DNA of 64,000 nucleotides. Source: a virus. Position numbers and translations under genes: made by a program. This document shows positions 1-49,394 of this stretch, piece by piece (position 1 is the stretch's first letter; each line of letters opens with the position of its first letter). The stretch is taken from positions 230,492 to 294,491 of IMG/VR virus record IMGVR_UViG_3300045988_171958; one strand, written 5' to 3'. Under the pieces are notes generated by a model, which was given only the letters and a program-made list of their open reading frames with translations, made no database searches and had not been told where the DNA came from.

Positions 1-3000
1 CGTTGAATAATGGGATAAGTACATGACCAACTGGATCACATTCTTCTACTTTGGTCTGAACATTATAGGATATCTTATATTCAGAAGACAACATATTTCT
101 TTCCCACTCATCCGTCTTCTCTAATCTATATAGATAGATATCTCTGTATTCAGAACTGTCATCCTTTTCTATTTTCATTACTTTATCATAGATGGTATCA
201 TCAAGTCTAGTAACATTTATGCTAAATACTATTTCATAAGAATTCACATCAAAGTCATCTTCATCACTATGGCGGAACTTCCATATTCCATTTCCTTTAT
301 ATTCTATTCTGTCATAGAAATAGTTGAATATTCTATAAGGGTTGTCAACTTTTTTACCTGAAATAGTTATCTGCTCTTCCATTCCATGAATGTTCTTCAA
401 CTTGGTATATGCATCTACTATCTGTATCTTATCATCAGAATCATTGGCCATAATTCTTTGCTTTACATACAAATAATCATACCAATTTTCTATTATATCA
501 ACCGGATAGTCATAATTATAGTCTTTACACAATTCATTATACCACCAATAAAGATGTTCTTTATTCAAGAACTTAGCCTTCATTCTTTTTATATAAGACA
601 ATCTTTCTTGAACCTTATCTTCTGATATGCCACTTTTTAACAATACTCTTCTGAAATTGTATACATCACACCATATTACATCAATATCCTTATCCTTATC
701 TTCATCATTCATTGTATCTCCATAAAAGTTCAATTCTGGATCTTTCTTTATGAATATGTTTGTTGCACATACTTCATTATCACCATATACTACTGGCATG
801 AATGTATATTTTGACTTAGAAGAGAGATGTTTTGTAAGATAATAACTAGTGTCTTTATATATGTTTTTCAATGCCATTCTGAAATTGTAAGCAGGTTTTC
901 CTACAACATTGAAATATGTTAAATCATAATTGTCTGCTTTTGAATTGCTTTTCAATCCAGTAAGATAGTAATAAGCTATCTGGTCGGTATCAGTAGCATC
1001 CAGCATCTTAATCCATTTTTCATTGAAGAATTCACCTTCTCTATATAAGTTGAATCCATATTGTGTATTTATTAGGGATGATGGTTGCAACAATATGTAT
1101 GAGTAACTGAAACCTTCTCTTCTATGAGATTCTATGTTTTCTTCAGGAATATAATAAGTGAACCCTACTTGATTTCTTATTTTCTTATCATTCTTAGAGG
1201 ATATGCAAATCTGCTTTACCATTGGATCTTGCCATATATCAAAATCAGTATACTGATACCAGTAGTAACTGTAAGGATTTTCCTTTTCTATAGAATATGT
1301 AGAAGTACTTCCAGTAATGTAATTCTCTAATGTATATGATAAGAATTTCTTGTTTGGATCAGTTATCAGATCATAAGTTGATATATCATATCCAGGAGCA
1401 AAAACATAAGATTGGTAATTCTTTCCATTTACAAAATCATCATTGTATGGATCTATAGGTGAACTTCCATTATGAACTTTGATACCATATTTGTAAGAAA
1501 CATAGCTAAGTGGACCACCAATCTTAATGTATGACAAATAAGATGAAGTGTCATCCACCATCATCTTCAATATGTGGATTGGGAGCATTTCATAGGAACT
1601 TGCTTTATAAGTGTTGATAATATCATCTATAGAATCAGAAGTAGTCAACTTATATATATTTTCACTTTTAAATAAATTGAATGCATCATTGAAAGTAGTA
1701 TTTGCAATTTCATGATTATATGAGAAATGAGCATAAGACAATTCATAAGATAATACATTTTCTAATTCTCTTATTGTATCATCATAATTATACCAGCTAT
1801 TTATGTCATCCATTGTAAACCCATAATCATTAATGTTCACATACCATTTTGAATATGAATATGAATTGTTAGGATCTATCTTTATGAATGTATCATTTAA
1901 CGACATTACTGCATTCTTTTCACTATCTGATGGATTTGTTGAAGTAAATGCTTCACAAGAAGCTTTAGCAATAGCATCACTATATAGCATTGAAGGCATG
2001 ATTACAGTATTGAACTTACAATTAGTTTCAAACTGGCTAGCCATGCTTGTAGATACAGTATAGTTAGCATGCTTCATGACATCATTAGCTACTGAAGTCT
2101 TTACAGAGAATCTTGGATTTACAAATACCCCAAACTTATCTATTTTTTCATTATCTTTAGTAAGTGCTTTATATATATGAGCAAGATTATGTAGAATGCC
2201 ATTATAATAGCATTCATCATTCATTACATTTTCCCAATGAGCACTATCTATCCAAGAACTATCATTTTCTGATATCTTACATAAGCTAAACCAATTATAA
2301 CCATACTTATTCATTATGTTTTCATAATTAGTTGTTATGTTTGAATATCTGTCATTATATTTGTCAATATCTTTTCCTAAAGGAAATATGAGTGAATAAT
2401 CTTCTGCTACAGATGATTTGCCAGATGATACTGTTTCACATATTCCTGAAACAGTATATGATGGTGTAGGAAATTCTCTATATAAGAGATTAGAATACTG
2501 GTTGTCGGAAAATGCAAAAGCAAGATTTATGATGTATGGATTTTCATCTGATGATGCTTGTAACTTCCATCTAGAATACATTTTGCTTATCTTATTAGAC
2601 AAAGAATATTTTTGCATTCTTGCTTCATGTAAGCTAGGATATTTGCTGTCCATTATATTTGGAACATTTCCAGGTATGTAGTTCATCAATCCGGTATTCT
2701 TATCCATTCTAAGGATACTCTGATTTAGTGTATCATAGTCACAACTCCAATCATACCAAGATATTCTGTTTCCATTTGATATGTAATATCCAGATACTTC
2801 AACTTGTGCACCTTTATATAATGTTTTCTCTGATTGGTCAAGTACTTTATCTAAATCAATACTGAAACACAATGGCAATACTTGTTTCATTGCAATATTC
2901 TTTCTTTTGAATTGTAATCCTAAAGAAAGATCAAAAAGATTTATAGTTGACATAGAGGATAGCATGTTACCTATTTCATTAGATATCGCGGTAGCTATGC

Positions 3001-3631
3001 CACCATGGTTCAAATCAATTCCATTGTATGTTGCATTTTTATTGTCAGCTGAAATATTTGCTACTTTAGAATCAATACAAGATTTATAAGAATCAAGATA
3101 ATGGAATAGATAGTTTCTCTTATCTTTTGAGTGATCCATTATATTGACTTTCATTCTCTTATACAGTTTTTTGTCTTTGTTGATGAATATCATATCTATA
3201 ATGAATGCATCAGGTAAGTCATTTGGATCATCTACATATATAGGTGCAAAAAATTCAAATTTATGGTTATTCTTCACATTCAATACTCTACTGCAACCCA
3301 TTTCCAAATCTATGTTTCTATCATAAATTGGATTTAACTTATCAAAATTCTGAACATTGGTTTCATCAAAAGACATTCCATTACTGAAGAAAACATTATT
3401 GTAATATTTATAGTATTCTTTCAGGTCATAAGAGTAGTTTGAAGATAGAAGATTAGCTTCTATTTTCTTATCATATATTGTATGAGACAATGGAGACAGC
3501 ACAGCACCTCTTACAAAGCAATCATATACATCATATTCTTTATCTGTTGATTTGATATAATCTGATGTTGTGCAAACTATTTTGACATTTCCACTATATG
3601 TAGGAATGACTCTTATTAATGGCTTTATCAT
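1..3631 (-). CDS. large virion-type protein, 3' end cut by window edge (at least ~1210 codons)
   Basis: My manual reverse-strand translation is open from ATG 3631-3629 (MIKPLIRVIPTYSGNVKIVCTTSDY...) to base 1. It is absent from the ORF track, presumably because no stop lies inside the window, and no other minus ORF is listed here. No motif recognised. Confidence 0.6.
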   Translation of the reverse strand, partial: MIKPLIRVIPTYSGNVKIVCTTSDYIKSTDKEYDVYDCFVRGAVLSPLSHTIYDKKIEANLLSSNYSYDLKEYYKYYNNVFFSNGMSFDETNVQNFDKLNPIYDRNIDLEMGCSRVLNVKNNHKFEFFAPIYVDDPNDLPDAFIIDMIFINKDKKLYKRMKVNIMDHSKDKRNYLFHYLDSYKSCIDSKVANISADNKNATYNGIDLNHGGIATAISNEIGNMLSSMSTINLFDLSLGLQFKRKNIAMKQVLPLCFSIDLDKVLDQSEKTLYKGAQVEVSGYYISNGNRISWYDWSCDYDTLNQSILRMDKNTGLMNYIPGNVPNIMDSKYPSLHEARMQKYSLSNKISKMYSRWKLQASSDENPYIINLAFAFSDNQYSNLLYREFPTPSYTVSGICETVSSGKSSVAEDYSLIFPLGKDIDKYNDRYSNITTNYENIMNKYGYNWFSLCKISENDSSWIDSAHWENVMNDECYYNGILHNLAHIYKALTKDNEKIDKFGVFVNPRFSVKTSVANDVMKHANYTVSTSMASQFETNCKFNTVIMPSMLYSDAIAKASCEAFTSTNPSDSEKNAVMSLNDTFIKIDPNNSYSYSKWYVNINDYGFTMDDINSWYNYDDTIRELENVLSYELSYAHFSYNHEIANTTFNDAFNLFKSENIYKLTTSDSIDDIINTYKASSYEMLPIHILKMMVDDTSSYLSYIKIGGPLSYVSYKYGIKVHNGSSPIDPYNDDFVNGKNYQSYVFAPGYDISTYDLITDPNKKFLSYTLENYITGSTSTYSIEKENPYSYYWYQYTDFDIWQDPMVKQICISSKNDKKIRNQVGFTYYIPEENIESHRREGFSYSYILLQPSSLINTQYGFNLYREGEFFNEKWIKMLDATDTDQIAYYYLTGLKSNSKADNYDLTYFNVVGKPAYNFRMALKNIYKDTSYYLTKHLSSKSKYTFMPVVYGDNEVCATNIFIKKDPELNFYGDTMNDEDKDKDIDVIWCDVYNFRRVLLKSGISEDKVQERLSYIKRMKAKFLNKEHLYWWYNELCKDYNYDYPVDIIENWYDYLYVKQRIMANDSDDKIQIVDAYTKLKNIHGMEEQITISGKKVDNPYRIFNYFYDRIEYKGNGIWKFRHSDEDDFDVNSYEIVFSINVTRLDDTIYDKVMKIEKDDSSEYRDIYLYRLEKTDEWERNMLSSEYKISYNVQTKVEECDPVGHVLIPLFN

Positions 3632-4007
3632 TAAAGTAGGACAATATTTGTTTTTCTGATATTTAAAAATTGACAATACTGTTTATTAATATTATTTAAC
3701 ATTTAAAATATGTCTGGTATCTATTTTTGTCTTTATTTTAATATAAGAAAATTAAAATTGAACTTTAAATGAAGTCACTCAAACTACATAGCGTCTCATC
3801 AGTGAAACAATCTTTTGGTTGCTTCTTATCTTGGTGCGGCAGTATGCCTTGTGGGTTTAGACATTCATAGTAAAGTTCGTGATAGAGGAATTGTATCTGA
3901 TCACGAATTAGTGAACGGAACAATTCTTATTTTATTAGATGAATATTGATTGAGAAGAAGTTCCGTATACAATTAGGAATTTTTTCTCATTTTTTGTATA
4001 TAAAAGT

Positions 4008-4036
4008 TTGAAATATTCCTTATAGATTCTATATTA
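4008..4036 (+). promoter_or_regulatory. sigma70-like promoter TTGAAA-N16-TATATT upstream of the tRNA array
   Basis: TTGAAAT at 4008-4014 and TTCTATATTA at 4027-4036. The same two-box pattern recurs upstream of at least 7 other plus-strand units. Confidence 0.5.
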
Positions 4037-4185
4037 TATATGTAATTACTTAATAAACAATTACAATACATGAAATAAGATCCAGAACTTAATACTTCTG
4101 AGTTGGTAGGTGACCAATAGCTTAAGGATATAAAGCAATTCATGCTAACAGGATTTTCTAGAGATCCGTAATTTGTTTATTAATT

Positions 4186-4258
4186 GGGTAAATAGCTCCA
4201 ATGGTAGAGCACTAGATTGAAGATCTAGGTGTTGTTGGTTCGAATCCATCTTTACCCA
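4186..4258 (+). tRNA. tRNA-Phe(GAA)
   Basis: Acceptor GGGTAAA/TTTACCC. Anticodon arm CTAGA-TTGAAGA-TCTAG. T-loop GGTTCGAATCC. Confidence 0.85.
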
Positions 4259-4270
4259 CAAAAATTATTT

Positions 4271-4344
4271 GGTTCTATAGCTCAGATGAATAGAGCAGGA
4301 TTCTTCTAAAATCCGGGTCATGGGTTTGAATCCCATTGGAACCA
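4271..4344 (+). tRNA. tRNA-Arg(TCT)
   Basis: Acceptor GGTTCTA/TGGAACC. D arm TAGCTCAGATGAATAGAGC. Anticodon arm GGATT-CTTCTAA-AATCC. Confidence 0.85.
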
Positions 4345-4374
4345 CTAATTAAGTTCTTTGAAATATTTATTTAA

Positions 4375-4460
4375 GTTCCATTAGCTCAGTTGGTTCCGTA
4401 AGGCTAGAGAGCATCCGACTTTTAATCGGAGGGTCACGGGTTCGAGCCCCGTATGGAACA
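4375..4460 (+). tRNA. tRNA-Lys(TTT) with enlarged D-loop; CCA encoded
   Basis: Acceptor GTTCCAT/ATGGAAC. Anticodon arm TCCGA-CTTTTAA-TCGGA. T arm ACGGG-TTCGAGC-CCCGT. D stem GCTC/GAGC encloses a 21-nt loop AGTTGGTTCCGTAAGGCTAGA. Followed by CCA. Confidence 0.65.
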
Positions 4461-4785
4461 CCATGGTAGTCAAGAGATCTCTGCTGAGAATGAATAAAGA
4501 ATGAGAAGCTCATCATCATTAACATCTGGATAATCAACAGATTTATGTGAATACCTCTGTTGGTCGTATGTAAGAGGTTTAATTTGGACAAGACCAAGAA
4601 TTACATAGACAACTTTGCATGGGCACCGGAAAAAGATCGAGAGATAATTAATGATGAATAACAAAGTTATTTAAACAAACCGTCCTAATTTGTTTGGTAA
4701 CAGGTTGTTATTGTTGAATCATATCATTGAAGTAGCTAATCAATTGAAGAAGGGAACAGCAATTGAAATACCAAATCCCTTGTAT

Positions 4786-4870
4786 GGAAGTATGGGTGAG
4801 TGGTTTAAACCAGCACACTGCTAACGTGCCGAACCTAAAGGTTCCGAAGGTTCGAATCCTTCTGCTTCCG
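4786..4870 (+). tRNA. tRNA-Ser(GCT), type II
   Basis: Acceptor GGAAGTA/TGCTTCC. Anticodon loop CTGCTAA. Long variable arm CGAACCTAAAGGTTCCG. T-loop GGTTCGAATCC. Confidence 0.75.
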
Positions 4871-4886
4871 CGAGAAATTTATGATT

Positions 4887-4974
4887 GGAAGTTTGGTAGA
4901 GTTGGTTTAATACATCAGTCTTGAAAACTGACGAACTGTAAAAAGTTCCGCAGGTTCGAATCCTGCAGCTTCCG
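4887..4974 (+). tRNA. tRNA-Ser(TGA), type II
   Basis: Acceptor GGAAGTT/AGCTTCC. Anticodon arm TCAGT-CTTGAAA-ACTGA. Long variable arm. T arm GCAGG-TTCGAAT-CCTGC. Confidence 0.8.
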
Positions 4975-4989
4975 CAAATGTATATATAA

Positions 4990-5060
4990 CTGCCATTGTC
5001 CGAGTGGTTAGGTGTAGGTCCGCAAAATCTACAACATTGGTTCGAATCCAATATGGCAGT
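4990..5060 (+). tRNA. tRNA-Cys(GCA)
   Basis: Acceptor CTGCCAT/ATGGCAG. Anticodon arm TAGGT-CCGCAAA-ATCTA. T arm ATTGG-TTCGAAT-CCAAT. Weak D stem. Confidence 0.7.
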
Positions 5061-5272
5061 CATTACATACAAGAACCAATAATGACATTGAAGTTCATTG
5101 AAAGAGATTGATACGTCGAGTGGACACCATATTCGCGATATAATGTTGCTCTCCTCAAATAGAAATATTAAGTGGATATATGCTGCAGTAAATATACCCA
5201 GTATAAGTTTTCTATGTTGTCTATAGATATCGATGGCTAAAAGGTCTATAGAAACTCTCGTTCTTGTATTTT

Positions 5273-5347
5273 GGTTCAATAGCTCAGTTGGTTTAGAGCG
5301 TCTGTTTTACAAGCAGAAGGTCCAAAGTTCGAATCTTTGTTGAACCA
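5273..5347 (+). tRNA. tRNA-Val(TAC)
   Basis: Acceptor GGTTCAA/TTGAACC. Anticodon arm TCTGT-TTTACAA-GCAGA. T-loop AGTTCGAATCT. Confidence 0.85.
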
Positions 5348-5420
5348 CATAATAAACCGGAGAACTAGCAGTGCCGTGAGAATAAGATCCGATTGCAAAG
5401 TCAACCCGGTTATAGTATAT

Positions 5421-5493
5421 GCAGATGTAGCTCAATGGTTAGAGTGCTTCCTTGCCATGGAAGAAGTTGTGAGTTCGATCCTCATCATCTGCT
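5421..5493 (+). tRNA. tRNA-Gly(GCC)
   Basis: Acceptor GCAGATG/CATCTGC with discriminator T. Anticodon arm CTTCC-TTGCCAT-GGAAG. Confidence 0.85.
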
Positions 5494-5503
5494 CAATATA
5501 TAT

Positions 5504-5581
5504 GCATCAGTGGTGTAGTTGGTGGTGCACATCTGGCTTCCAACCAGAAGGCTTTCGCGAGTTCGAATCTCGTCTGATGCT
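5504..5581 (+). tRNA. tRNA-Gly(TCC), slightly long variable region
   Basis: Acceptor GCATCAG/CTGATGC. Anticodon arm TCTGG-CTTCCAA-CCAGA. T arm GCGAG-TTCGAAT-CTCGT. About 8 nt between the anticodon and T arms. Confidence 0.75.
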
Positions 5582-5588
5582 CTAATAT

Positions 5589-5676
5589 CTAGGTGTACTC
5601 TAATTGGTCAGAGCCTTGATTTGGGATCAAGTGGATACTGATAAAGTGGATGCAGGTTCGAGTCCTGTCACCTAGA
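5589..5676 (+). tRNA. tRNA-Pro(TGG) with ~20-nt variable-region insertion
   Basis: Acceptor CTAGGTG/CACCTAG. D arm CTCT-AATTGGTC-AGAG. Anticodon arm CTTGA-TTTGGGA-TCAAG. T arm GCAGG-TTCGAGT-CCTGT. TGGATACTGATAAAGTGGAT lies between the anticodon and T arms. Confidence 0.6.
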
Positions 5677-5682
5677 CTATAT

Positions 5683-5756
5683 ACACCGATCAGTCAATTG
5701 GTTTAGGCTAGCAGTCTCCAAAATTGCTAATATTGGTTCGATTCCAGTTCGGTGTG
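5683..5756 (+). tRNA. tRNA-Trp(CCA); CCA encoded
   Basis: Acceptor ACACCGA/TCGGTGT. Anticodon arm GCAGT-CTCCAAA-ATTGC. T-loop GGTTCGATTCC. Followed by CCA. Confidence 0.8.
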
Positions 5757-5786
5757 CCAGTGTTTAATTTTAAATGTTGTTAATAT

Positions 5787-6191
5787 ATGAGTAACATGAG
5801 AAATAGAGCTTGGAGAAGAAAGAAGACTGAATCAAAATGGAATTCTCGTTGTAAGAAGTTCATGTTTGATAGTATTTTTAGAGATGGTGATAAAGAATAT
5901 TCATTCAACATAAGTGAAGGTAATGGCAAGAAAATCAGACGTACAATAATGATTCCTAATTTGAGAAGACCAACTTCATGGAAAGAAATGAAGAAACTTG
6001 ATCCGTGGGCTAGGTTTTTGAAGAATGGTTCTGGATATCGTACTTATATATCAGACCAGATGGATGCTAAGCGAAAAGTTAAGTTGCAACGTATCAACAA
6101 CAAGAAACTTATCAATGAAGGAATTCAGGAATATGATGACATATATGATGAAACTTTAGAAGATAATTTCTATCTTAATAATGTAGCATAA
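5787..6191 (+). CDS. hypothetical basic protein embedded in the tRNA array
   Basis: 134-aa ORF with Arg/Lys-rich N-terminus (RNRAWRRKKTESKWNSRCKKF). No motif recognised. Confidence 0.5.
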   Translation: MSNMRNRAWRRKKTESKWNSRCKKFMFDSIFRDGDKEYSFNISEGNGKKIRRTIMIPNLRRPTSWKEMKKLDPWARFLKNGSGYRTYISDQMDAKRKVKLQRINNKKLINEGIQEYDDIYDETLEDNFYLNNVA

Positions 6192-6202
6192 ATTATGTAC
6201 AT

Positions 6203-6274
6203 GGGTTCTTTCGTTCAATGGTAGGACAGGAGGTTGTGGTTCTCCTTATTAGAGTTCGATTCTCTAAGGAACCC
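6203..6274 (+). tRNA. tRNA-His(GTG) with G-1
   Basis: An extra 5' G faces discriminator C. Acceptor GGTTCTT/AGGAACC. Anticodon loop TTGTGGT. T arm TAGAG-TTCGATT-CTCTA. Confidence 0.8.
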
Positions 6275-6658
6275 CAAACGTGATCAGAATATACTGGTGA
6301 TTGGACAAAAACAATGTAGCTGAGAAGAGTAATGCAATAATACGCGTAAATAATTGCATGAAACATATAATAAGCGCGGATGAAAAAAGCCTTACCTATG
6401 GCCGCCTCCCTACATTTGTATTTTGAATGTCAATGAAACAATAAGTATAAGGTTTGGTAACGCTTATTAAATTAATTGGTTCATTCAAGTTCACTATGCA
6501 GTCTGGGCTTTATAGAGCCTTGTAGTTTAAAGCATCGTAAAACATTCTGGTTATAAGAGAATATATCACCCAAGCGAATTGTCATGAGATTCGTACACCT
6601 GCTTAAGATGGTTGAATTATGTGGGAAGTAATTCTATAAAATAGGGCATGCCCACAAT

Positions 6659-6732
6659 GGCGTAATAGCTCAGTTGATTAGAGCGCATCATTCATGCTGA
6701 TGAGGTCGTTGGTTTGAGTCCATCTTACGCCA
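6659..6732 (+). tRNA. tRNA-Met(CAT), elongator-like
   Basis: Acceptor GGCGTAA/TTACGCC. Anticodon arm CATCA-TTCATGC-TGATG. T-loop GGTTTGAGTCC. Confidence 0.8.
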
Positions 6733-6812
6733 CAGCTTAAACGGACCGAACTTAGTCTTTTATGCATCTTTTCTCTAGGGTAAGGTGTTAAACACCAAAA
6801 GAAAAGGCACCA

Positions 6813-6895
6813 GGGAATATGCTGTAATTGGTAGCCAGGCCAGACTTAGGATCTGGTGCTTCAATAGCGTGTGGGTTCGAGTCCCACTATTCCCA
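6813..6895 (+). tRNA. tRNA-Leu(TAG), type II
   Basis: Acceptor GGGAATA/TATTCCC. Anticodon arm CCAGA-CTTAGGA-TCTGG. Long variable arm. T arm GTGGG-TTCGAGT-CCCAC. Confidence 0.85.
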
Positions 6896-7158
6896 CAATC
6901 GTTGAAGTAATGTAGTTTATGAAAGTCTAACATTAGTAATGGAAACCTAATGGCCCTCTATGTTATCCTAAAGAGAATAAAGTACGATTAGTAAATGAGT
7001 TATGGATCTGTTTAAACAGATCGCTTCAGAACTTCTAAAGAAGTCAGTAAGTTAGATGAAACCACCATAATATAATATCTGGATAACTATATGTATGGAT
7101 AGGAATGAAGTTTTAGGTGCAGACACCGGTAGCGTCACCTTTTGTAATTCCTAGTATT

Positions 7159-7244
7159 GCTCCGATGTTGGAATTGGTAGACAAGATGGACTTAAAATCC
7201 ATTGGTCAGTGATGACCGTACGGGTTCGATCCCCGTTCGGAGTA
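7159..7244 (+). tRNA. tRNA-Leu(TAA), type II
   Basis: Acceptor GCTCCGA/TCGGAGT. Anticodon arm ATGGA-CTTAAAA-TCCAT. Variable arm TGGTCAGTGATGACCG. T-loop GGTTCGATCC. Confidence 0.8.
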
Positions 7245-7422
7245 CAAATTGATAGCAATCCTGAATAGAGAAGGAAGAAAGACGAGTTATGAAGGTAAGT
7301 ATGCTTAAAGCTGCACGTATAATGCAGTGCATACCAAGGATAAATAACTAAAACACACCATATAAACTCTACACGAAGGTCTGATGCAGGAAGTGCGCAC
7401 TTGCTATCAATTTATTTTTATT

Positions 7423-7506
7423 GCTTTCATGGCGGAATTGGTAGACGCAACTGTCTCAAAAACAGCTGATAGAAATATCATGAAGGTTCGAGTCCTTCTG
7501 GAAGTA
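7423..7506 (+). tRNA. tRNA-Leu(CAA), type II
   Basis: Acceptor GCTTTCA/TGGAAGT. Anticodon loop CTCAAAA. Variable arm TGATAGAAATATCATG. T-loop GGTTCGAGTCC. Confidence 0.75.
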
Positions 7507-7540
7507 CTTATTATTCAATTAAACAATTATTTTATTTTAC

Positions 7541-8542
7541 ATGAGATTACCTTTGGTGCCACTTTCAGAATGGGTATTGAATAGACAGAATGAATTTGAA
7601 TTAAAATTATTTGAATCATTCAGACAAGAATTCAATATAAGAGACAATGAAGAATTTAATATTTGTGAAAGATATGGGTCTTATGATGGACAAATGAAAT
7701 TCTGTAGAGACTTTGCAACAATGTTGTCAGAAGACATACAAGACAATCTTAATATGACTGATTTTAGATATGACTTAAATAAAGAAGAAATTAAAGATTA
7801 TTATAAAGGATTGTTTTTTGACAATATTCACTTGATATGTAATACAATGTGTCAGACAGGATATCAAGCAAGAAAATCTGAATATAATCCAAAAACCCTT
7901 ACATTTAAAGATGTATATATCTATATAAACATCAAGGAATACAATAAAGAAAAGGACATTACTGTTGCACTTACTCATGAGCTTACACATGCTTATGATG
8001 ATTGGAACAGACACTCAAAAGAAGGAGTTGAAACATTACTTGATATTGAGAAAAACACAGGATATGATAAATTAATTGATAAGATAAAGTCAAGTGATTT
8101 CAATGAAAAGATTGCATCTGAAATGATTTATACATTCACTTCAGTAGAAAAGAATGCTTACATGTCAGAATTGACCGCTGAAATAGAAAGTATAGGGGAA
8201 AAAATCAAAGATTATACATATATGGATGCGTTAAAAATATTTAAGAATTCAGATACATGGAAAAGATTCAATCAATTCAAAGAATATTTTATGTTGATGA
8301 ATAATGAAGAAAAGAAAGTATTGTGTGATGTATACAGAGAAATAAAGAAATCAAGCAATACAGACAATAAGATATTAAAACAATTGAAATATGATATACA
8401 AGAAACATTTGATAAGATGTGTACTATCATACCAAAGATTTACTATTATTACAAAGAAAAGTATTCAAATAAAGAAATAAAGAAAGAAAAAGTAAGTGAA
8501 TCAAGATTAAATAGAATAAAGAAAAGATTTAACATAATTTAA
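7541..8542 (+). CDS. putative zinc metallopeptidase (HExxH)
   Basis: 333-aa ORF containing VALTHELTHAYDDW (HExxH). Otherwise Lys/Glu-rich and helical-looking. Lies inside the tRNA array. Confidence 0.45.
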   Translation: MRLPLVPLSEWVLNRQNEFELKLFESFRQEFNIRDNEEFNICERYGSYDGQMKFCRDFATMLSEDIQDNLNMTDFRYDLNKEEIKDYYKGLFFDNIHLICNTMCQTGYQARKSEYNPKTLTFKDVYIYINIKEYNKEKDITVALTHELTHAYDDWNRHSKEGVETLLDIEKNTGYDKLIDKIKSSDFNEKIASEMIYTFTSVEKNAYMSELTAEIESIGEKIKDYTYMDALKIFKNSDTWKRFNQFKEYFMLMNNEEKKVLCDVYREIKKSSNTDNKILKQLKYDIQETFDKMCTIIPKIYYYYKEKYSNKEIKKEKVSESRLNRIKKRFNII

Positions 8543-8868
8543 CTAAATAATATTGTCCACTTTACTATTTATATATTATATTTAAATGAATAAATGAATA
8601 AAACAATGAGAACTATCACAAATACATATTATCAAATAATTGATGAACAGGCCATTGATAATCAACGAATGGTTTGCTCTTGTTTTGGTATATGTGAAAG
8701 TGATGAGATTGACTTTTAAATACGTCCTCCACTGTTTAAACATTCAACAATACAATCAAGACAAGAGCAATACAGAAATGTGTTGCTCTTTGTTGATTTA
8801 GCTTCAGCTGTACTGAAGCATGAAGTACTAAAAAAGTTGATAAAAAATGAAAATTTTTTGAAAGATCT

Positions 8869-8898
8869 TTGAAATACTGATAAATCAAATCTATATTA
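8869..8898 (+). promoter_or_regulatory. sigma70-like promoter TTGAAA-N17-TATATT
   Basis: CTTTGAAAT followed 17 nt later by CTATATTA, upstream of ORF 8944. Confidence 0.45.
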
Positions 8899-8943
8899 TA
8901 TATGTAAGTTATATAAAATATCACATTTAAAATTATAATTATT

Positions 8944-9165
8944 ATGACAAGATTAGAATCAAACATTAAGATATTGAATATTATAAAGCAACTTGCCTAT
9001 ATGTTTCCAGATATGAGATTCATTCAGTTGCTTACAACTGTTGATGCAATTCTTGGTACTGATCAGTTCTATGAGGAATCGGAAGTTACATTGAATAGAA
9101 TCAAAGAGAAAATTGAATATCAACAAAGAAGATATGGTAAGTTGACTGATATTGATATTAATTAG
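8944..9165 (+). CDS. hypothetical small protein
   Basis: 73-aa ORF preceded by a promoter-like motif. No motif recognised. Confidence 0.45.
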   Translation: MTRLESNIKILNIIKQLAYMFPDMRFIQLLTTVDAILGTDQFYEESEVTLNRIKEKIEYQQRRYGKLTDIDIN

Positions 9166-9176
9166 ATAATATAAAT

Positions 9177-9250
9177 GGCGCGTTCGACAAGTGGCCTAAG
9201 TCGCCAGTTTTTCACGCTGGTATTCACCGGTTCGAATCCGGTACGCGCTA
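9177..9250 (+). tRNA. tRNA-Glu(TTC)
   Basis: Acceptor GGCGCGT/ACGCGCT. Anticodon arm CCAGT-TTTTCAC-GCTGG. T arm ACCGG-TTCGAAT-CCGGT. Confidence 0.8.
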
Positions 9251-9261
9251 CGATAAATATT

Positions 9262-9344
9262 GGGTAGATAGATAAGTGGTTAAAATGGTTTGACTGTAAA
9301 TCAAATGGCTTCGGCCTTCGGGAGTTCGAATCTCTCTCTGCCCA
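9262..9344 (+). tRNA. tRNA-Tyr(GTA), type II
   Basis: Acceptor GGGTAGA/TCTGCCC. Anticodon arm TTTGA-CTGTAAA-TCAAA. Variable arm GGCTTCGGCC. T-loop AGTTCGAATCT. Confidence 0.85.
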
Positions 9345-9493
9345 CCGGGTCAAAAGAGCAAATGATAATCATGACAAAGTGATGTGTGAACAATTTAGAT
9401 ATAATCAACGCTTTACGTTGCTTGCAACTAAAGTTATTGTGAAAGCCACATAGGAGATTGATGTGCAGCTAACTGAGACTTTAATCAGTATTT

Positions 9494-9570
9494 GGAGTAT
9501 TAAGCCCTGTTGGTAAGGGAACTAGACTGTCACTCTAGTAAAACTAAGGGTTCGAGTCCCTTATGCTCCG
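9494..9570 (+). tRNA. tRNA-Asp(GTC)
   Basis: Acceptor GGAGTAT/ATGCTCC. Anticodon arm CTAGA-CTGTCAC-TCTAG. T arm AAGGG-TTCGAGT-CCCTT. Confidence 0.8.
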
Positions 9571-9579
9571 CAAATAGAT

Positions 9580-9651
9580 TGGACTATGGTGTAACTGGAA
9601 ACACTACAGATTTTGGTTCTGTCATTCGGAGTTCGAACCTCCGTGGTCCAA
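9580..9651 (+). tRNA. tRNA-Gln(TTG)
   Basis: Acceptor TGGACTA/TGGTCCA. Anticodon arm ACAGA-TTTTGGT-TCTGT. T arm CGGAG-TTCGAAC-CTCCG. Confidence 0.85.
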
Positions 9652-9657
9652 CAATTT

Positions 9658-9768
9658 AGGTGGTTATATCAGTTGGTTAACTTAGTTCTTGAACAGAACA
9701 TAAGTGATGTTCATTAGATAGCTTGCCTGATAAGCAAGAGGTCATAGGTTCAAGTCCTATATCACCTA
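9658..9768 (+). tRNA. tRNA-Ile(GAT)-like gene with ~37-nt hairpin insertion in the D-loop
   Basis: Acceptor AGGTGGT/ATCACCT. Anticodon arm CTTGC-CTGATAA-GCAAG. T arm ATAGG-TTCAAGT-CCTAT. D stem TATC/GATA encloses AGTTGGTTA plus an inserted hairpin ACTTAGTTC-TTGAACA-GAACATAAGT. Confidence 0.55.
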
Positions 9769-9777
9769 CAAGATTCT

Positions 9778-9808
9778 TTGAAATTTTGGATATAGTTATT
9801 CTATATTT
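9778..9808 (+). promoter_or_regulatory. sigma70-like promoter TTGAAA-N18-TATATT
   Basis: CTTTGAAAT then TTCTATATTT, immediately upstream of tRNA-Ile(TAT) and ORF 9907. Confidence 0.4.
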
Positions 9809-9821
9809 AATATAAATAAAT

Positions 9822-9895
9822 ACTCCAGTAACTCAGTTGGTTAGAGTGCTCGGCTTATACCCAAGTGGTCGGGGGTTCAAGTCCCTCCTGGAGTA
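9822..9895 (+). tRNA. tRNA-Ile(TAT)
   Basis: Acceptor ACTCCAG/CTGGAGT. D arm ACTC-AGTTGGTTA-GAGT. Anticodon loop CTTATAC (stem CTCGG/CCAAG with one C.A mismatch). T arm GGGGG-TTCAAGT-CCCTC. Confidence 0.7.
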
Positions 9896-9906
9896 CTATT
9901 AAATGT

Positions 9907-10530
9907 ATGGATTTAATAAAAAGTTATGCAAGTAAATGTTGTACAGGGCAAAAGAAAATAGCTTATTGTGTAGATTGTGGGAAAGAACTTATAATTTATA
10001 AAAGAGCTTCTTCAAAAACTTGTAGATGTGATAATTGCAGAAAAAACCGCATTAGACAAAAAAGACTACAATATAGATTAAATTTTTTAAATAATGATTA
10101 TGAAATTCATTTTGGTAGAAAATATTCAAAAGAAAGCTGGCTAGCATTACATAATGGTGGTTGTAAAGGAATACAACATCAAGGTGATTTAAGACGTAGT
10201 AAAAATGAAATAGAATTTTGTAAATTATGTGAAGAATATTTTAATAATGTTAAACATAATGAATGTATATTTAATGGATGGGATGCAGATATAATAATAG
10301 AAGATATAAAATTCGCGGTATTATGGAATGGTCCATGGCATTATAAACAAATTACGAAATCTCATTCAGTTAAGCAAATACAAAATAGGGATAAAATAAA
10401 GATAAAAGAAATTAAAGAATCTGGTTGGACACCTTATATTATAAAAGATATGGGTAAGGCAAATAAAGATTTTGTTAAAGAAAAATTTGATGAATTCTTG
10501 AAATATTTAAAAGAAAATACTATTATTTAA
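9907..10530 (+). CDS. putative homing endonuclease: N-terminal Cys4 zinc ribbon plus Vsr/PD-(D/E)xK-like nuclease core
   Basis: I moved the start to ATG 9907, because the track start 9865 overlaps tRNA-Ile. Motifs: CVDCG...CRCDNC, SKNEIEF, WDADIII, FAVLWNGPWHY (compare Vsr FVxGCFWH) and RDKIK...GW. Free-standing inside the tRNA array. Confidence 0.5.
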   Translation: MDLIKSYASKCCTGQKKIAYCVDCGKELIIYKRASSKTCRCDNCRKNRIRQKRLQYRLNFLNNDYEIHFGRKYSKESWLALHNGGCKGIQHQGDLRRSKNEIEFCKLCEEYFNNVKHNECIFNGWDADIIIEDIKFAVLWNGPWHYKQITKSHSVKQIQNRDKIKIKEIKESGWTPYIIKDMGKANKDFVKEKFDEFLKYLKENTII

Positions 10531-10546
10531 ATAGTTAATTATATAT

Positions 10547-10628
10547 CGTGGGTGAGTGAAACGGATATTTATAAATCACGTCGGTCTCATAAGCCGTACA
10601 ATAGTGGGTTCGACTCCCACACCCATCA
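10547..10628 (+). tRNA. tRNA-Met(CAT) second copy, enlarged D-loop, mismatched 1:72 pair
   Basis: Acceptor CGTGGGT/ACCCATC (C.C at 1:72, G.T at 2:71). D stem GTGA/TCAC with 16-nt loop. Anticodon loop CTCATAA. T arm GTGGG-TTCGACT-CCCAC. Confidence 0.55.
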
Positions 10629-10652
10629 CTAACAAAGAAATTCTAAACTTAA

Positions 10653-10725
10653 GGATCGATAGCTCAGTTGGTAGAGCAACTTGCTGTTAACAAGAAGGTC
10701 GTCAGTTCGAATCTGGCTCGGTCCG
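10653..10725 (+). tRNA. tRNA-Asn(GTT)
   Basis: Acceptor GGATCGA/TCGGTCC. D arm TAGCTCAGTTGGTAGAGC. Anticodon loop CTGTTAA. T-loop AGTTCGAATCT. Confidence 0.8.
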
Positions 10726-10922
10726 CAAACGGCAACGATTATTTAGAGGCGGCTTAACTGCTACTCGAATGTGATATGGGTTGGATAATCACCAACATGG
10801 TCAAGGACATGCACACTTCTTGATATTGACGCGACAAAACAAGATGAAGCCTAATATTACGGTGAAAGTCGAACTCTTTCTTGAATTCATCCTCTTTGTC
10901 AATTGATAGAATCCTTGAATTT

Positions 10923-10997
10923 GGGGTCAATAGCTCAGTTGACTAGAGCACTTGATTTGCATTCAAAAGGTCCAGGGTTTGAATCCCTGTGGCTCCA
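10923..10997 (+). tRNA. tRNA-Ala(TGC) with G3:U70
   Basis: Acceptor GGGGTCA/TGGCTCC gives a G3.T70 wobble. Anticodon loop TTTGCAT. T arm CAGGG-TTTGAAT-CCCTG. Confidence 0.85.
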
Positions 10998-11139
10998 CAA
11001 GTAATAGAGAGGACCTAGCATTTAACTAGGTGGTTGTTAGAGGTGTCAGTGCAATCTACAGGTACTCCTGATAGCTCAATGTATTACGAGAATATGGTCA
11101 TGATAGTTTGCACATCTGATGCCATATTTGATTTTATAT

Positions 11140-11212
11140 GCCATTATAGCTCAATTGGTAGAGCATCTGTCTTGTAAACAGAAGGTTATCGGATCATACC
11201 CGGTTAATGGCT
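11140..11212 (+). tRNA. tRNA-Thr(TGT), atypical T-loop
   Basis: Acceptor GCCATTA/TAATGGC. Anticodon arm TCTGT-CTTGTAA-ACAGA. T arm ATCGG-ATCATAC-CCGGT (non-canonical loop). Confidence 0.7.
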
Positions 11213-11233
11213 CAAATTATTTATGGAAAAGAA

Positions 11234-11259
11234 AAAGAGCATTCTTAAGAATGCTCTTT
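11234..11259. terminator. bidirectional palindromic terminator (CTTAAG apex)
   Basis: AAAGAGCATTCTTAAGAATGCTCTTT is a perfect palindrome flanked by A and T runs. It lies between the end of the tRNA array (+) and gene 11268 (-). Confidence 0.7.
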
Positions 11260-11267
11260 ATTTGTAT

Positions 11268-12125
11268 TTATTTATATGTATAAAATTGTACCCATTTATC
11301 TTTATCTTTCTTAACTTCTTCTATCAAATCCATAGCTTCATCAACCGCTTTGTTTATTGCTTTTGACAATTCTTTTGTCTCTAATGATTTATATGGGTCA
11401 TCATCGTAGCTAGCTGAACCTGGTTTACCAATATAAAGCTGCCAATCTCCATTTTCTTTCTTTTTACCTATTAAGAAATCTATTTCTATTCCAGCTTTCT
11501 TGTCCCTATGTACATATTCTATCTTAAGATATTTCTCACCTTCTTTCAAGTCTGTTACTTGCTTATCTGGGGCAGTAAATATCTTAAATTGAATCTCAGA
11601 ACGTTGCTTAGCTTTAGCATCATCTTTTGCTCCATCTTGACCTAATGCCGGACTACTATTATTTTCAGTATTTCCATCATCTCCTGTATCTGATGTTTCT
11701 TCTGAAGCCGCATCATCCATACCTTGACCTTCTTCTTCCTCTCCTTCTTCTAATACATACTTTATCTTATCTTTCCACGTCTTTCCTTCAACCATAGGGA
11801 TCATTGTTATCAAATTTATGGCTTCACAATATAATTTAGGATTCTCAATTATATTTTCTACTTTACTAGAAAGACTTTTCACTTTCTCTATATAATCATT
11901 ATTCTCTACAGTAAGTAGTATTGTAGAATCTGGGTTCACATAACACTCCACTGTAATAGAAGGACTATCATCATCTGACAAATACTTTAAATATTTGCCT
12001 TCATCTAGTATTCCTTCATATATAGTAGATCCAAACTTTTTCAATATGCAATTATGCTCCGTCATATATTTCCATATAGATGGAGCATTGTCATGTACAT
12101 AACGTAATGATACAAAATTTCTCAT
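11268..12125 (-). CDS. hypothetical protein with acidic Gly/Asp/Glu-rich linker
   Basis: 285-aa ORF downstream of the terminase gene. Central EEGEEEEGQGMDDAASEETSDTGDDG tract. No motif recognised. Confidence 0.6.
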   Translation of the reverse strand: MRNFVSLRYVHDNAPSIWKYMTEHNCILKKFGSTIYEGILDEGKYLKYLSDDDSPSITVECYVNPDSTILLTVENNDYIEKVKSLSSKVENIIENPKLYCEAINLITMIPMVEGKTWKDKIKYVLEEGEEEEGQGMDDAASEETSDTGDDGNTENNSSPALGQDGAKDDAKAKQRSEIQFKIFTAPDKQVTDLKEGEKYLKIEYVHRDKKAGIEIDFLIGKKKENGDWQLYIGKPGSASYDDDPYKSLETKELSKAINKAVDEAMDLIEEVKKDKDKWVQFYTYK

Positions 12126-48641: not shown

Positions 48642-49394
48642 ATGTTAGGAGATAGACCATTAGTAATTTATGATGTTGAGACAACTGGTCTTGACAAGTC
48701 AAAAGATCAGATTATTCAAATTGCATTAGTAAAATATGATTGGAATATAAAGAAAATCATTGATAGTAAGAATTATTATATTCAACCAGAAGGTAGTTAT
48801 TCTATTCCTATTGGTGCTTATATGGTACATCATATTAATGCAGAATTCTTGAAAGATAAACCACATTTTAGAGAAGTTGCAAGTGAAATTTTTGATTTCT
48901 TTACAGGATGTGATATCGTAACATATAATGGATGTTCATTTGATAATGCTATATTGACAGAAGAATTTTCTAGATGTGGTATCTTGTTTGATGTACGAAC
49001 TTGTGACAATTATGATTGTTTCTATGAAGAGAAACGTATCAATGGAAATCGATTAGGTGATACATTCAAACGTTATTATGGAAAGACAATGGATGAATGT
49101 GGTTTAAATGCTCATGATGCTTTATCTGATGTAAAAGCAACTGCAGCTATTTTTGTAAAACAGCAAGAAGCACATCCTTATGAACCAGAAGAAATTCTTA
49201 CTATTGATAATGTAGTAGCTATGCAAGAATTCAATGGCAAGATAGTTCCATGTTTTACATTAGGAAAGTATAGAGGATTGGGAGTTGAATTTGTAGCAGG
49301 TTTCGACCAAGGTTATATTGCTTGGGCAATTGGTGATACTAGTAAGTTTGTTCCATCAACTAAAGAATATTTAAAGAAGTTTTTAAAAGTTTAA
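48642..49394 (+). CDS. DEDDh 3'-5' exonuclease (DnaQ/DexA-like)
   Basis: Exo I VIYDVETTGL, Exo II YNGCSFDNAIL, Exo III HDALSDVKATAAIF. Confidence 0.8.
   Translation: MLGDRPLVIYDVETTGLDKSKDQIIQIALVKYDWNIKKIIDSKNYYIQPEGSYSIPIGAYMVHHINAEFLKDKPHFREVASEIFDFFTGCDIVTYNGCSFDNAILTEEFSRCGILFDVRTCDNYDCFYEEKRINGNRLGDTFKRYYGKTMDECGLNAHDALSDVKATAAIFVKQQEAHPYEPEEILTIDNVVAMQEFNGKIVPCFTLGKYRGLGVEFVAGFDQGYIAWAIGDTSKFVPSTKEYLKKFLKV

Follow-up and report, generated by a model that had tools for sequence, protein, structure and literature searches.

What does a virus gain from a compact array of tRNA genes that reaches all 20 amino acids? The question is raised by IMG/VR virus record IMGVR_UViG_3300045988_171958, of which positions 230,492 to 294,491 were analyzed here (64,000 nucleotides; hereafter, the window, in whose numbering all positions are given). 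A preliminary description, made from the letters of the window alone, had placed 26 tRNA genes near its left end and had suggested substantial independence from the host tRNA pool. We confirm that the array is real, a cluster of phage tRNA genes, and consider it probable that its role lies in codon supply. Several of its members have non-canonical designs, and individual genes have been replaced between nearly identical genomes; both features call for additional explanations.

Genes were called using ARAGORN and the Rfam tRNA model RF00005 at its gathering threshold of 29 bits. The two programs called the same 25 tRNAs, all on the plus strand between 4186 and 11213, with Rfam scores of 35.0–73.4 bits, and found no further tRNAs elsewhere in the window; on 50 dinucleotide-preserving shuffles of the region, ARAGORN made no calls. 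High covariance scores and intact cloverleaves characterize 24 of the 25 genes. The anticodons are those that had been assigned by manual folding, and covariance scoring left every assignment unchanged, with 25 of the 26 proposed genes at or above threshold. Thirteen anticodons start with T, the suppressor anticodons CTA, TCA and TTA are all absent from the calls, and the 20 amino acids are all represented by the threshold-passing tRNAs. The count of 26 stands with a qualification, as the remaining gene, the second with a CAT anticodon (10547–10628), reaches only 21 bits and is kept on the comparative evidence described below. With this gene included, the array comprises 26 genes on one strand within 7 kb, interspersed with four small open reading frames (ORFs). 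The identity elements listed in the preliminary description were read directly from the sequence, namely, G-1 of tRNA-His (base 6203, facing C73) and the G3:U70 pair of tRNA-Ala. The standard genetic code, which had also been proposed, holds as well: ORFs under this code span 94% of positions 11268–64000, where the stop codons are TAA (47), TAG (4) and TGA (1). An alternative code for the seemingly ORF-free left flank (1–3684) was ruled out, since the flank is occupied by a single minus-strand ORF of >1,200 codons that leaves the window.

The set consists of approximately one tRNA per codon box, with U34 for NNR and four-codon boxes and G34 for NNY boxes; Gly(GCC) and Leu(CAA) are the extras beyond this design. 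Of the 14 possible U34 sense anticodons, 13 are present, UCG being the sole gap. Because the parsimonious one-per-box design requires U34 to predominate, the previously described bias towards A/U-ending codons stands as a count of 13 U34 anticodons but not as a separate bias. The match to the phage is apparent from codon usage itself, which was determined for 18,377 codons in 52 ORFs. The third position is T in 43% and A in 36% of these codons, and ATA accounts for 53% of the Ile codons, AGA for 73% of Arg, TTA and TTG together for 65% of Leu, and GAA for 87% of Glu. The favored ATA, AGA and TTA/TTG codons have dedicated tRNAs, and the only codons without any phage decoder are CGN, which make up 0.6% of the total. 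In the NNY two-codon boxes, T-ending codons are preferred (59% for Phe, 76–89% for each of the five others), and here the array has the universal G34 tRNAs. Under standard wobble rules, the array decodes 84.9% of the codons, a value that rises to 99.4% if U34 reads whole four-codon boxes. The minimal tRNA sets of Mollicutes and organelles rely on this type of reading, with U34 recognizing all four codons of a box. The array resembles these sets in having one U34 tRNA per four-codon box, a tRNA-Ile(UAU), approximately 25 tRNA species and an AT-rich genome, and differs from them in being viral, with access to host tRNAs, and in the lack of a CGN decoder.

Given the genes and anticodons observed, their match to codon usage, and their conservation and turnover in relatives, the array is best explained as a tRNA cluster by which the phage provides decoders suited to its AT-rich genome, a reading that we consider probable. 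Under this scenario, promoter-like sites of the phage (4008, 8869, 9778 and 10498) would drive transcription of the array in a few polycistronic units, with the terminator at 11234–11259 closing it, and the transcripts would be cut into tRNAs by host RNase P and 3'-end nucleases. A CCA-adding enzyme would then finish the 23 of 25 tRNAs whose genes lack the CCA end (only Lys and Trp encode it), and host synthetases would charge the products, which retain the identity elements G-1 of His, G3:U70 of Ala, and C1-G72 with A73 of Pro. The outcome would be a greater supply of decoders for AT-rich codons (ATA, AGA, TTA, GAA, AAA and others), such that phage proteins could be made efficiently even in a host whose tRNAs are poorly matched, depleted or cleaved.

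Several observations weigh against codon supply as the full account. The NNY codons of six four-codon boxes, 15% of all codons, require either that U34 reads pyrimidines or that host tRNAs be used. The gene for tRNA-Ile(GAT), the decoder of AUU and AUC (47% of the Ile codons), is interrupted by a 37-nt insertion. The set is not complete in the fetched stretches of close relatives: Pro is missing from L002, L004 and L005 (designations of this form denote related loci), Leu(CAA) from most relatives, and Gly, Ala or Ile(GAT) from some. The replacement of alleles that share an anticodon is not predicted by codon supply alone, and this explanation presupposes that phage and host differ in codon usage. 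Furthermore, no aminoacyl-tRNA synthetase, CCA-adding enzyme or tRNA-modification enzyme was detected by comparison with Pfam and PHROG among ~35 window proteins (about two-thirds of the ORFs), so charging and maturation probably remain host-dependent, the scan having covered window proteins of a ~290-kb genome. Thus, the decoding set is indeed near-complete, but substantial independence from the host is only partly supported, the points against it being pyrimidine-ending codons, CCA addition, charging, Ile(GAT) and the variable completeness of the array. A DEDDh-type 3'-5' exonuclease of the RNase T family is encoded at 48642–49394 on the plus strand (Pfam RNase_T, E = 1e-24); its substrate could be DNA or RNA 3' ends, and a link to tRNA maturation is speculative. 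The individual genes of the array and the other features discussed below are listed in Table 1.

Table 1. Genes of the tRNA array, ORFs located within it and candidate transcription signals (bit scores are for Rfam RF00005)
Feature	Position	Strand	Evidence	Remarks
Promoter-like site	4008..4037	+	consensus scan	TTGAAA, 16-18 nt, TATATT/TATTAT; upstream of first tRNA
tRNA-Phe(GAA)	4186..4258	+	ARAGORN, Rfam 64.2 bits	G37 in anticodon loop
tRNA-Arg(TCT)	4271..4344	+	ARAGORN, Rfam 59.1 bits	decodes AGA/AGG
tRNA-Lys(TTT)	4375..4463	+	Rfam 44.2 bits	21-nt D-loop; mini-hairpin CC-GUAA-GG at 4396-4403; CCA encoded
tRNA-Ser(GCT)	4786..4870	+	ARAGORN, Rfam 51.6 bits	
tRNA-Ser(TGA)	4887..4974	+	ARAGORN, Rfam 58.3 bits	near-identical strains carry an allele 67% identical instead
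tRNA-Cys(GCA)	4990..5060	+	ARAGORN, Rfam 47.7 bits	C33 in anticodon loop
tRNA-Val(TAC)	5273..5347	+	ARAGORN, Rfam 73.4 bits	
tRNA-Gly(GCC)	5421..5493	+	ARAGORN, Rfam 66.6 bits	
tRNA-Gly(TCC)	5504..5581	+	ARAGORN, Rfam 57.6 bits	8-nt variable loop
tRNA-Pro(TGG)	5589..5676	+	ARAGORN, Rfam 50.8 bits	20-nt variable region 5632-5651; C1-G72 and A73 retained
tRNA-Trp(CCA)	5683..5759	+	ARAGORN, Rfam 48.1 bits	CCA end encoded
134-aa ORF	5787..6191	+		in array; no family match
tRNA-His(GTG)	6203..6274	+	ARAGORN, Rfam 49 bits	including G-1
tRNA(CAT), elongator type	6659..6732	+	ARAGORN, Rfam 62.4 bits	G1-C72; unusual G37 and C38
tRNA-Leu(TAG)	6813..6895	+	ARAGORN, Rfam 55.4 bits	
tRNA-Leu(TAA)	7159..7244	+	ARAGORN, Rfam 53.8 bits	
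tRNA-Leu(CAA)	7423..7506	+	ARAGORN, Rfam 51.3 bits	found in some relatives only
333-aa ORF	7541..8542	+	weak sub-threshold matches to peptidases M76 and M91	in array; HExxH motif; presence varies among relatives
Terminator-like hairpin followed by T run	8763..8790	+	consensus scan	inside array
Similar promoter-like sites	8869-8897, 9778-9807, 10498-10526	+	consensus scan	
73-aa ORF	8944..9165	+		within strain-exchanged block 8956-9365
tRNA-Glu(TTC)	9177..9250	+	Rfam 55.3 bits	88% identical to Lak-C1 tRNA; allele ~63% identical in sister strains
tRNA-Tyr(GTA)	9262..9344	+	ARAGORN, Rfam 53.1 bits	
tRNA-Asp(GTC)	9494..9570	+	Rfam 37.2 bits	L005 orthologue similar (37.3 bits)
tRNA-Gln(TTG)	9580..9651	+	ARAGORN, Rfam 53.3 bits	
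tRNA-Ile(GAT)	9658..9768	+	Rfam 35.0 bits	37-nt D-loop insertion, ~9677-9713
tRNA-Ile(TAT)	9822..9895	+	ARAGORN, Rfam 64.7 bits	decodes AUA; 99-100% conserved in relatives
Predicted zinc-ribbon and Vsr-like endonuclease ORF, 207 aa	9907..10530	+	structure prediction	inside array
Non-canonical CAT tRNA	10547..10628	+	Rfam 21 bits	16-nt D-loop; C1xC72, U27xU43, U31.G39
tRNA-Asn(GTT)	10653..10725	+	ARAGORN, Rfam 64.3 bits	alleles 61-69% identical in sister strains
tRNA-Ala(TGC)	10923..10997	+	ARAGORN, Rfam 51.8 bits	G3:U70
tRNA-Thr(TGT)	11140..11212	+	ARAGORN, Rfam 66.3 bits	last gene of array
Bidirectional terminator-like hairpin	11234..11259	.	consensus scan	closes array

The tRNA-Lys(UUU) gene illustrates how far members of the array depart from canonical tRNAs. 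Comparison with orthologues and more distant homologues places its start at 4375, as opposed to 4393 in the ARAGORN and Rfam models, and reveals a 21-nt D-loop of the form AGUUGG-UUCC-GNAA-GGCU-AGA that includes a 13-nt insert. Among 11 distinct sequences that represent five acceptor stems, the model starting at 4375 is paired in 99.6% of cells (99.6–100% across counts), and 14 pairs changed on both sides, a value equaled in none of 500 shuffles; with the truncated model (4393–4463), the acceptor helix is paired in only 79.6% of cells. On the basis of the orthologue alignments and these pair counts, the short ARAGORN model was rejected in favor of a full-length gene with a D-loop insert. In contrast to the acceptor, anticodon and T stems, which vary by compensatory substitutions, the insert is conserved in sequence. 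When eight bases around the GNNA core were left free in a search, only the UUCC/GGCU flanks were returned, with all four GNAA loops represented. ARAGORN labels the homologues as 'Ser(aga)', undetermined or truncated Lys. The hairpin-bearing pattern with exact flanks matched no tRNA in 185,579 species genomes; the sole genome match, located inside a G+C-rich coding region, is due to chance, and a bacterial source of this tRNA was accordingly rejected. Two further Lys genes were encountered in related loci: L004 carries a second Lys gene with extra bases in the anticodon loop, and in a related 184-kb contig (L046, 280–900) an insertion with an HNH-motif ORF splits the hairpin-bearing gene in its anticodon loop, after CTTT; it may represent an intron or a homing-endonuclease insertion.

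In bacteria, long variable arms are the hallmark of class II tRNAs, those for Leu, Ser, Tyr and Sec. The 20-nt variable region of tRNA-Pro(UGG) forms a short stem-loop with a stem of 3–4 bp; in its length (>10 nt) and its stem-loop it resembles class II tRNAs, but the Pro isotype lies outside the classical set, and the gene is therefore regarded as a variant. A diverged copy in other gut contigs (L055/L056) shows compensatory pairs in the stem of the variable arm (A-U to G-C) and in the anticodon stem. Long variable arms on normally short-armed isotypes recur in related gut huge-phage arrays (L008, L009, L012, L014, L018, L024, L052 and L060) and in the Lak-C1 phage (L057), the sizes being 84–85 nt for Thr, 87–88 for Asn, 81–91 for Trp, 85–86 for initiator-like Met and 89 for Arg(UCU). 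Unusual anticodon-loop bases are seen in three other genes of the array, those for Phe (G37), Cys (C33) and the CAT tRNA at 6659 (G37 and C38).

The CAU tRNA at 10547–10628 lies below the Rfam threshold (E = 1.2) and is missed by ARAGORN even at a lowered threshold. Its minimum-energy fold is a cloverleaf, and homologues are present in four other phage lineages (Prevotella phage Lak-C1, L058, L063 and L065). Compensatory changes maintain the acceptor, anticodon and T stems across the five homologous sequences, as determined by scripted pair counts on hand-parsed segments, the 3' ends having been misaligned by MAFFT; the family conserves a D-loop of 14–16 nt, the anticodon loop CUCAUAA and the U31.G39 pair. 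Because the homologues preserve the cloverleaf in this manner, we accept the sequence as that of a genuine non-canonical CAU tRNA. Bacterial initiator tRNA-fMet is marked by a C1xA72 mismatch and by an anticodon stem whose bottom consists of three consecutive G:C pairs. At 1:72, the window has C1xC72, L063 has C1xA72, and Lak-C1, L058 and L065 have U1-A72. With a mismatch at this position in only two of the five sequences and an anticodon stem (UxU, C-G, G-C, G-C, U.G) that lacks these three G:C pairs, the initiator assignment is not supported. In L006, L003 and L004, the same slot is occupied by different CAU tRNAs that have C1xA72.

The insertion in tRNA-Ile(GAT) has a different character. 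It became apparent when the gene was aligned with the 75-nt canonical orthologues of L001, L004 and L005; the covariance score of the window copy is 35.0 bits, compared with 69.1 for the L005 orthologue, and the minimum-energy fold with the insertion is not a cloverleaf. The copy in the window is probably impaired. Each of the eight human-gut loci L031–L038 carries the insertion, which is fixed in this sub-lineage; the slot shows an internal deletion in L003 and is empty in L002. The short model given by the tools (~9702–9768, the 3' part) was rejected in favor of the full-length gene with insert on the basis of the orthologue alignment, as was the possibility that the insert is a repeated mobile element, since it occurs once in the window and has zero exact IMG/VR matches.

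A syntenic array is found in 13 related genomes, and comparisons among the closest of these reveal replacement gene by gene. Outside the replaced blocks, the window and L037 show 12 isolated differences in 7.5 kb (~99.8% identity). The blocks themselves are 8956–9365 (a small ORF, Glu and Tyr) and 10549–10637 (the CAU tRNA slot); relative to L031, they are 4872–4975 (Ser-TGA) and 10631–10724 (Asn). The incoming tRNA genes have the same anticodon and are merely 61–67% identical to those they replace. In a comparison of 13 genomes, about half the slots had at least two allele classes; those of Phe, Val, both Gly, Asp, Gln and Ile(TAT) were invariant.

A candidate agent of this exchange resides in the array. 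By sequence, the array ORFs had no match above threshold in Pfam, PHROG or PDB, and the 207-aa protein (9907–10530) was identified by structure prediction only. Its AlphaFold2 model (pLDDT 89) has Vsr endonuclease among the top Foldseek matches (1cw0_A, E = 1.1e-3, probability 1.0; 1vsr, TM 0.55), and a weak sequence match connects the protein to a mobile intron protein (3r3p, E = 0.096). The family comprises 926 clusters at 50% identity, with members that contain zinc-finger and NUMOD3 DNA-binding modules. We predict that the gene is a mobile, homing-endonuclease-like gene with a Vsr-like (PD-(D/E)xK) fold. It is missing in L003 and L004 and present in a second copy in L031, L034, L035 and L036; in some sister strains, the second copy occupies the place of the 333-aa ORF. 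A homologue with 58.6% identity is located in the tRNA region of the unrelated Lak-C1 (L057, 1501–1910), where it adjoins the same CAU tRNA and is near a Glu tRNA 88% identical to that of the window. Within the small set of related loci compared, the 37-nt insert of Ile(GAT) was invariably accompanied by this allele of the endonuclease; the uninterrupted Ile(GAT) gene is a candidate target of the enzyme. It is plausible that the Vsr-like endonuclease is the agent of tRNA-gene replacement.

Codon supply explains neither the swapping of alleles nor the conserved structural marks, and we therefore considered the array as an anti-defence locus. Phage tRNAs have more recently come to be viewed also as substitutes for tRNAs that the host loses to immune nucleases (PMC10264068, PMC11464382, PMC11555353). 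If this view applies here, the array would provide tRNAs that are not recognized by host tRNA-cleaving immune nucleases, candidates for which are the PrrC, PARIS AriB, retron PtuAB, Septu and VapC classes. The D-loop hairpin of Lys, the variable arm of Pro, the D-loop of the CAU tRNA, and the anticodon-loop bases of Phe (G37), Met (G37/C38) and Cys (C33) would be anti-determinants, and allele swapping would reflect diversifying selection. This explanation is compatible with codon supply and could describe either the main role or an additional one; we regard it as possible but rather unlikely. The strong divergence of same-anticodon replacements within otherwise nearly identical genomes fits it, as does the Lys insert, fixed in sequence amid covarying stems and absent from the tRNAs of the species genomes searched. 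There is also precedent, in that PARIS targets tRNA-Lys(UUU) and phage T5 escapes by means of a variant tRNA-Lys (PMC11464382), and in that anticodon-loop changes occur at nuclease cleavage sites in phage tRNAs (PMC10264068). However, the known escape mutations are located in the anticodon stem-loop rather than the D-loop, swapping is explicable by recombination among co-circulating phages, promoted by a homing endonuclease, and many members of the array are invariant. An extended version, in which gut jumbo phages and megaphages share a pool of nuclease-evading, marked tRNAs (Lys, Pro and CAU) that are swapped as cassettes with the help of the Vsr-like endonuclease, is offered tentatively and appears somewhat less likely still.

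Alternatively, the array could be a by-product of a recombination and homing hotspot where tRNA genes gather, exchange and decay, many of them being neutral and the completeness of the set incidental. The T4 homing endonuclease SegB drives the inheritance of a tRNA region (PMC2330249), and the array contains a Vsr-like mobile gene that is duplicated or missing in relatives and common to Lak-C1. The fate of Ile(GAT), with an insertion here, an internal deletion in L003 and absence in L002, would be natural at such a site, as would the variable presence of Pro, Leu(CAA), Gly and Ala and the second Lys gene of L004 with its extra anticodon-loop bases. Nevertheless, a hotspot of this kind does not account for the intact cloverleaves and high covariance scores of 24 of the 25 genes, for an anticodon set that is non-redundant and closely fits phage codon usage, for the compensatory substitutions that preserve the non-canonical members, or for the retention of the anticodon upon replacement, which points to selection on decoding capacity; we consider this explanation improbable. 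Least likely of all is that the inserts in Lys, Ile(GAT), Pro and the CAU tRNA are introns excised after transcription to yield canonical tRNAs, for although Lak megaphage tRNAs are stated to have introns (PMC8346664) and the Lys gene of L046 is split in the anticodon loop by its HNH-ORF insertion, the inserts in question are 13–37 nt long and lie in D-loops or variable loops, not where bacterial group I introns interrupt tRNA genes, Rfam matches in 3400–11600 included no intron family even at a permissive E of up to 5, in a search not aimed specifically at bulge-helix-bulge motifs, the Lys insert forms a conserved GNAA mini-hairpin at a place where D-loops normally tolerate extra bases, and the stem of the Pro insert is preserved by compensatory change like a true variable arm.

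The terminase and portal genes near the array and the existence of near-identical gut contigs indicate that the source phage, so far as its sequence tells, is a prevalent human-gut tailed jumbo phage of ~290 kb with T4-like packaging and portal genes. The large terminase subunit (13291–16089) and a T4-like portal protein (18455–20239; Pfam Portal_T4, E = 2.6e-77) are encoded on the minus strand to the right of the array, 2–9 kb from it. One array-encoded protein is 100% identical on 17 human-gut metagenome contigs of up to 295,536 bp, and the near-identical human-gut contigs are 247–296 kb long, L033 being 99.95% identical to the window. Close relatives in IMG/VR are 167–283 kb, with terminases 95–97% identical; more distant ones reach 435 kb. 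The relatives that place the array in a phage genome are viral contigs of 148–283 kb. In the GenBank phage set, the best terminase match has 32% identity (LR756500, a 462-kb uncultured huge phage), and matches at the DNA level are limited to tRNA-sized pieces, mostly from Lak megaphages of Prevotella. The G+C content of the phage is 30%. Sequences in common with Lak phages, the only basis for host assignment, suggest a Bacteroidota host such as Prevotella.

Arrays that cover the 20 amino acids are already documented in jumbo, huge and Lak phages, and the window array is a further example. The 56 tRNAs of the Xanthomonas jumbo phage XacN1 together serve all 20 amino acids (PMC5852040), and as many as 67 tRNAs occur in huge phages (PMC7162821). 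The array shares with these a large tailed phage as its carrier, clustering on the same strand, coverage of the 20 amino acids and sequences distinct from those of cellular tRNAs; it differs in being smaller and non-redundant, in adjoining the terminase/portal module rather than lying in terminal repeats, and in having no synthetase among the scanned window genes. Lak phages of Prevotella encode 24–56 tRNAs including CTA and TTA suppressors (PMC8346664). Common ground with Lak includes the human gut as habitat, AT-richness, tRNAs with extra segments, the Glu(TTC) tRNA (88% identity), the non-canonical CAU tRNA and the Vsr-like endonuclease gene; in contrast, the window phage has no suppressor, uses the standard code, has a genome of ~290 kb versus 540 kb, and encodes a terminase that is close to no Lak record. 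The SegB region of T4 (PMC2330249; PMC13096335) is likewise an exchange hotspot between related phages with a free-standing endonuclease gene in a tRNA cluster, although the endonuclease of the window has a predicted Vsr-like fold with a zinc ribbon and is not a GIY-YIG enzyme. Similar to the T5 tRNA-Lys that counters PARIS (PMC11464382) and to phage anticodon-loop variants (PMC10264068), the window phage has its own tRNA-Lys(UUU), structurally unlike the cellular one, and unusual anticodon-loop bases; its tRNA-Lys is distinguished by a 13-nt D-loop hairpin insert instead of an anticodon-stem change. The limited searchable part of the literature contained no description of the Lys D-loop hairpin, the long-armed tRNA-Pro, the CAU tRNA family or cassette-like swaps, and nothing on enlarged D-loops in phage tRNAs.

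Standard finders mishandle several members of the array, so phage tRNA counts and amino-acid coverage in gut viromes are probably distorted. The three non-canonical designs, conserved across divergent gut phages, are candidates for defining the limits of D-loop and variable-loop expansion in bacterial translation, and also for protection against tRNA-targeting immunity. The gene-by-gene replacement of alleles between ~99.8% identical genomes amounts to a natural experiment on selection beyond the anticodon.

Among the more distant relatives, whose terminases are 55–62% identical, the arrays of L009, L010, L011, L014, L016 and L017 contain suppressor tRNAs, as does that of a separately retrieved contig (L022); most have a CTA suppressor, and L009 has TTA. 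The wider clade, though not the phage of the window, therefore seems to recode stop codons. In some loci, the terminase match extends over 3.5–4.0 kb or is split (738 + 392 aa), compared with 2.8 kb in the window (L005, 10001–13991; L007; L009; L036, 10548–13939), an indication that some strains have an intron, intein or endonuclease insertion in this gene.

Sites resembling promoters and terminators were located by consensus scan (Table 1), and together they bracket sub-clusters of the array. The decamer TCTTTGAAAT is present in exactly three copies in the 64 kb (4355, 8866 and 9775), all inside the array and on the plus strand. The copies at 8866 and 9775 precede TATATT/TATTAT at promoter spacing, as do the TTGAAA sites at 4008 and 10498, and the -10-like elements end at 4037, 8897, 9807 and 10526; these sites are putative promoters. 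The copy at 4355, 11 nt upstream of the Lys gene, moves with the hairpin-bearing Lys cassette and is missing from L005.

The ORF-free spacers were also considered as hidden structured RNAs or tRNA remnants, a possibility that was rejected, given that fold z-scores are mostly unremarkable and a permissive Rfam search found the CAU tRNA only. The exceptions in folding are 3700–4185 (z = -4.4) and 8543–8943 (z = -3.5). The latter spacer has 24% G+C and holds the hairpin at 8763–8790 and the promoter-like site at 8869. Within the former, the ORF-free plus-strand segment 3760–3985, between a divergent large gene and the first tRNA, has z = -4.0, with none of 200 shuffles equal, compared with z = -1.9 for the minus strand, and it has no Rfam match. 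The segment is maintained in close relatives with a few one-sided pair changes (five close sequences in the alignment) and may be an unknown small RNA or leader.

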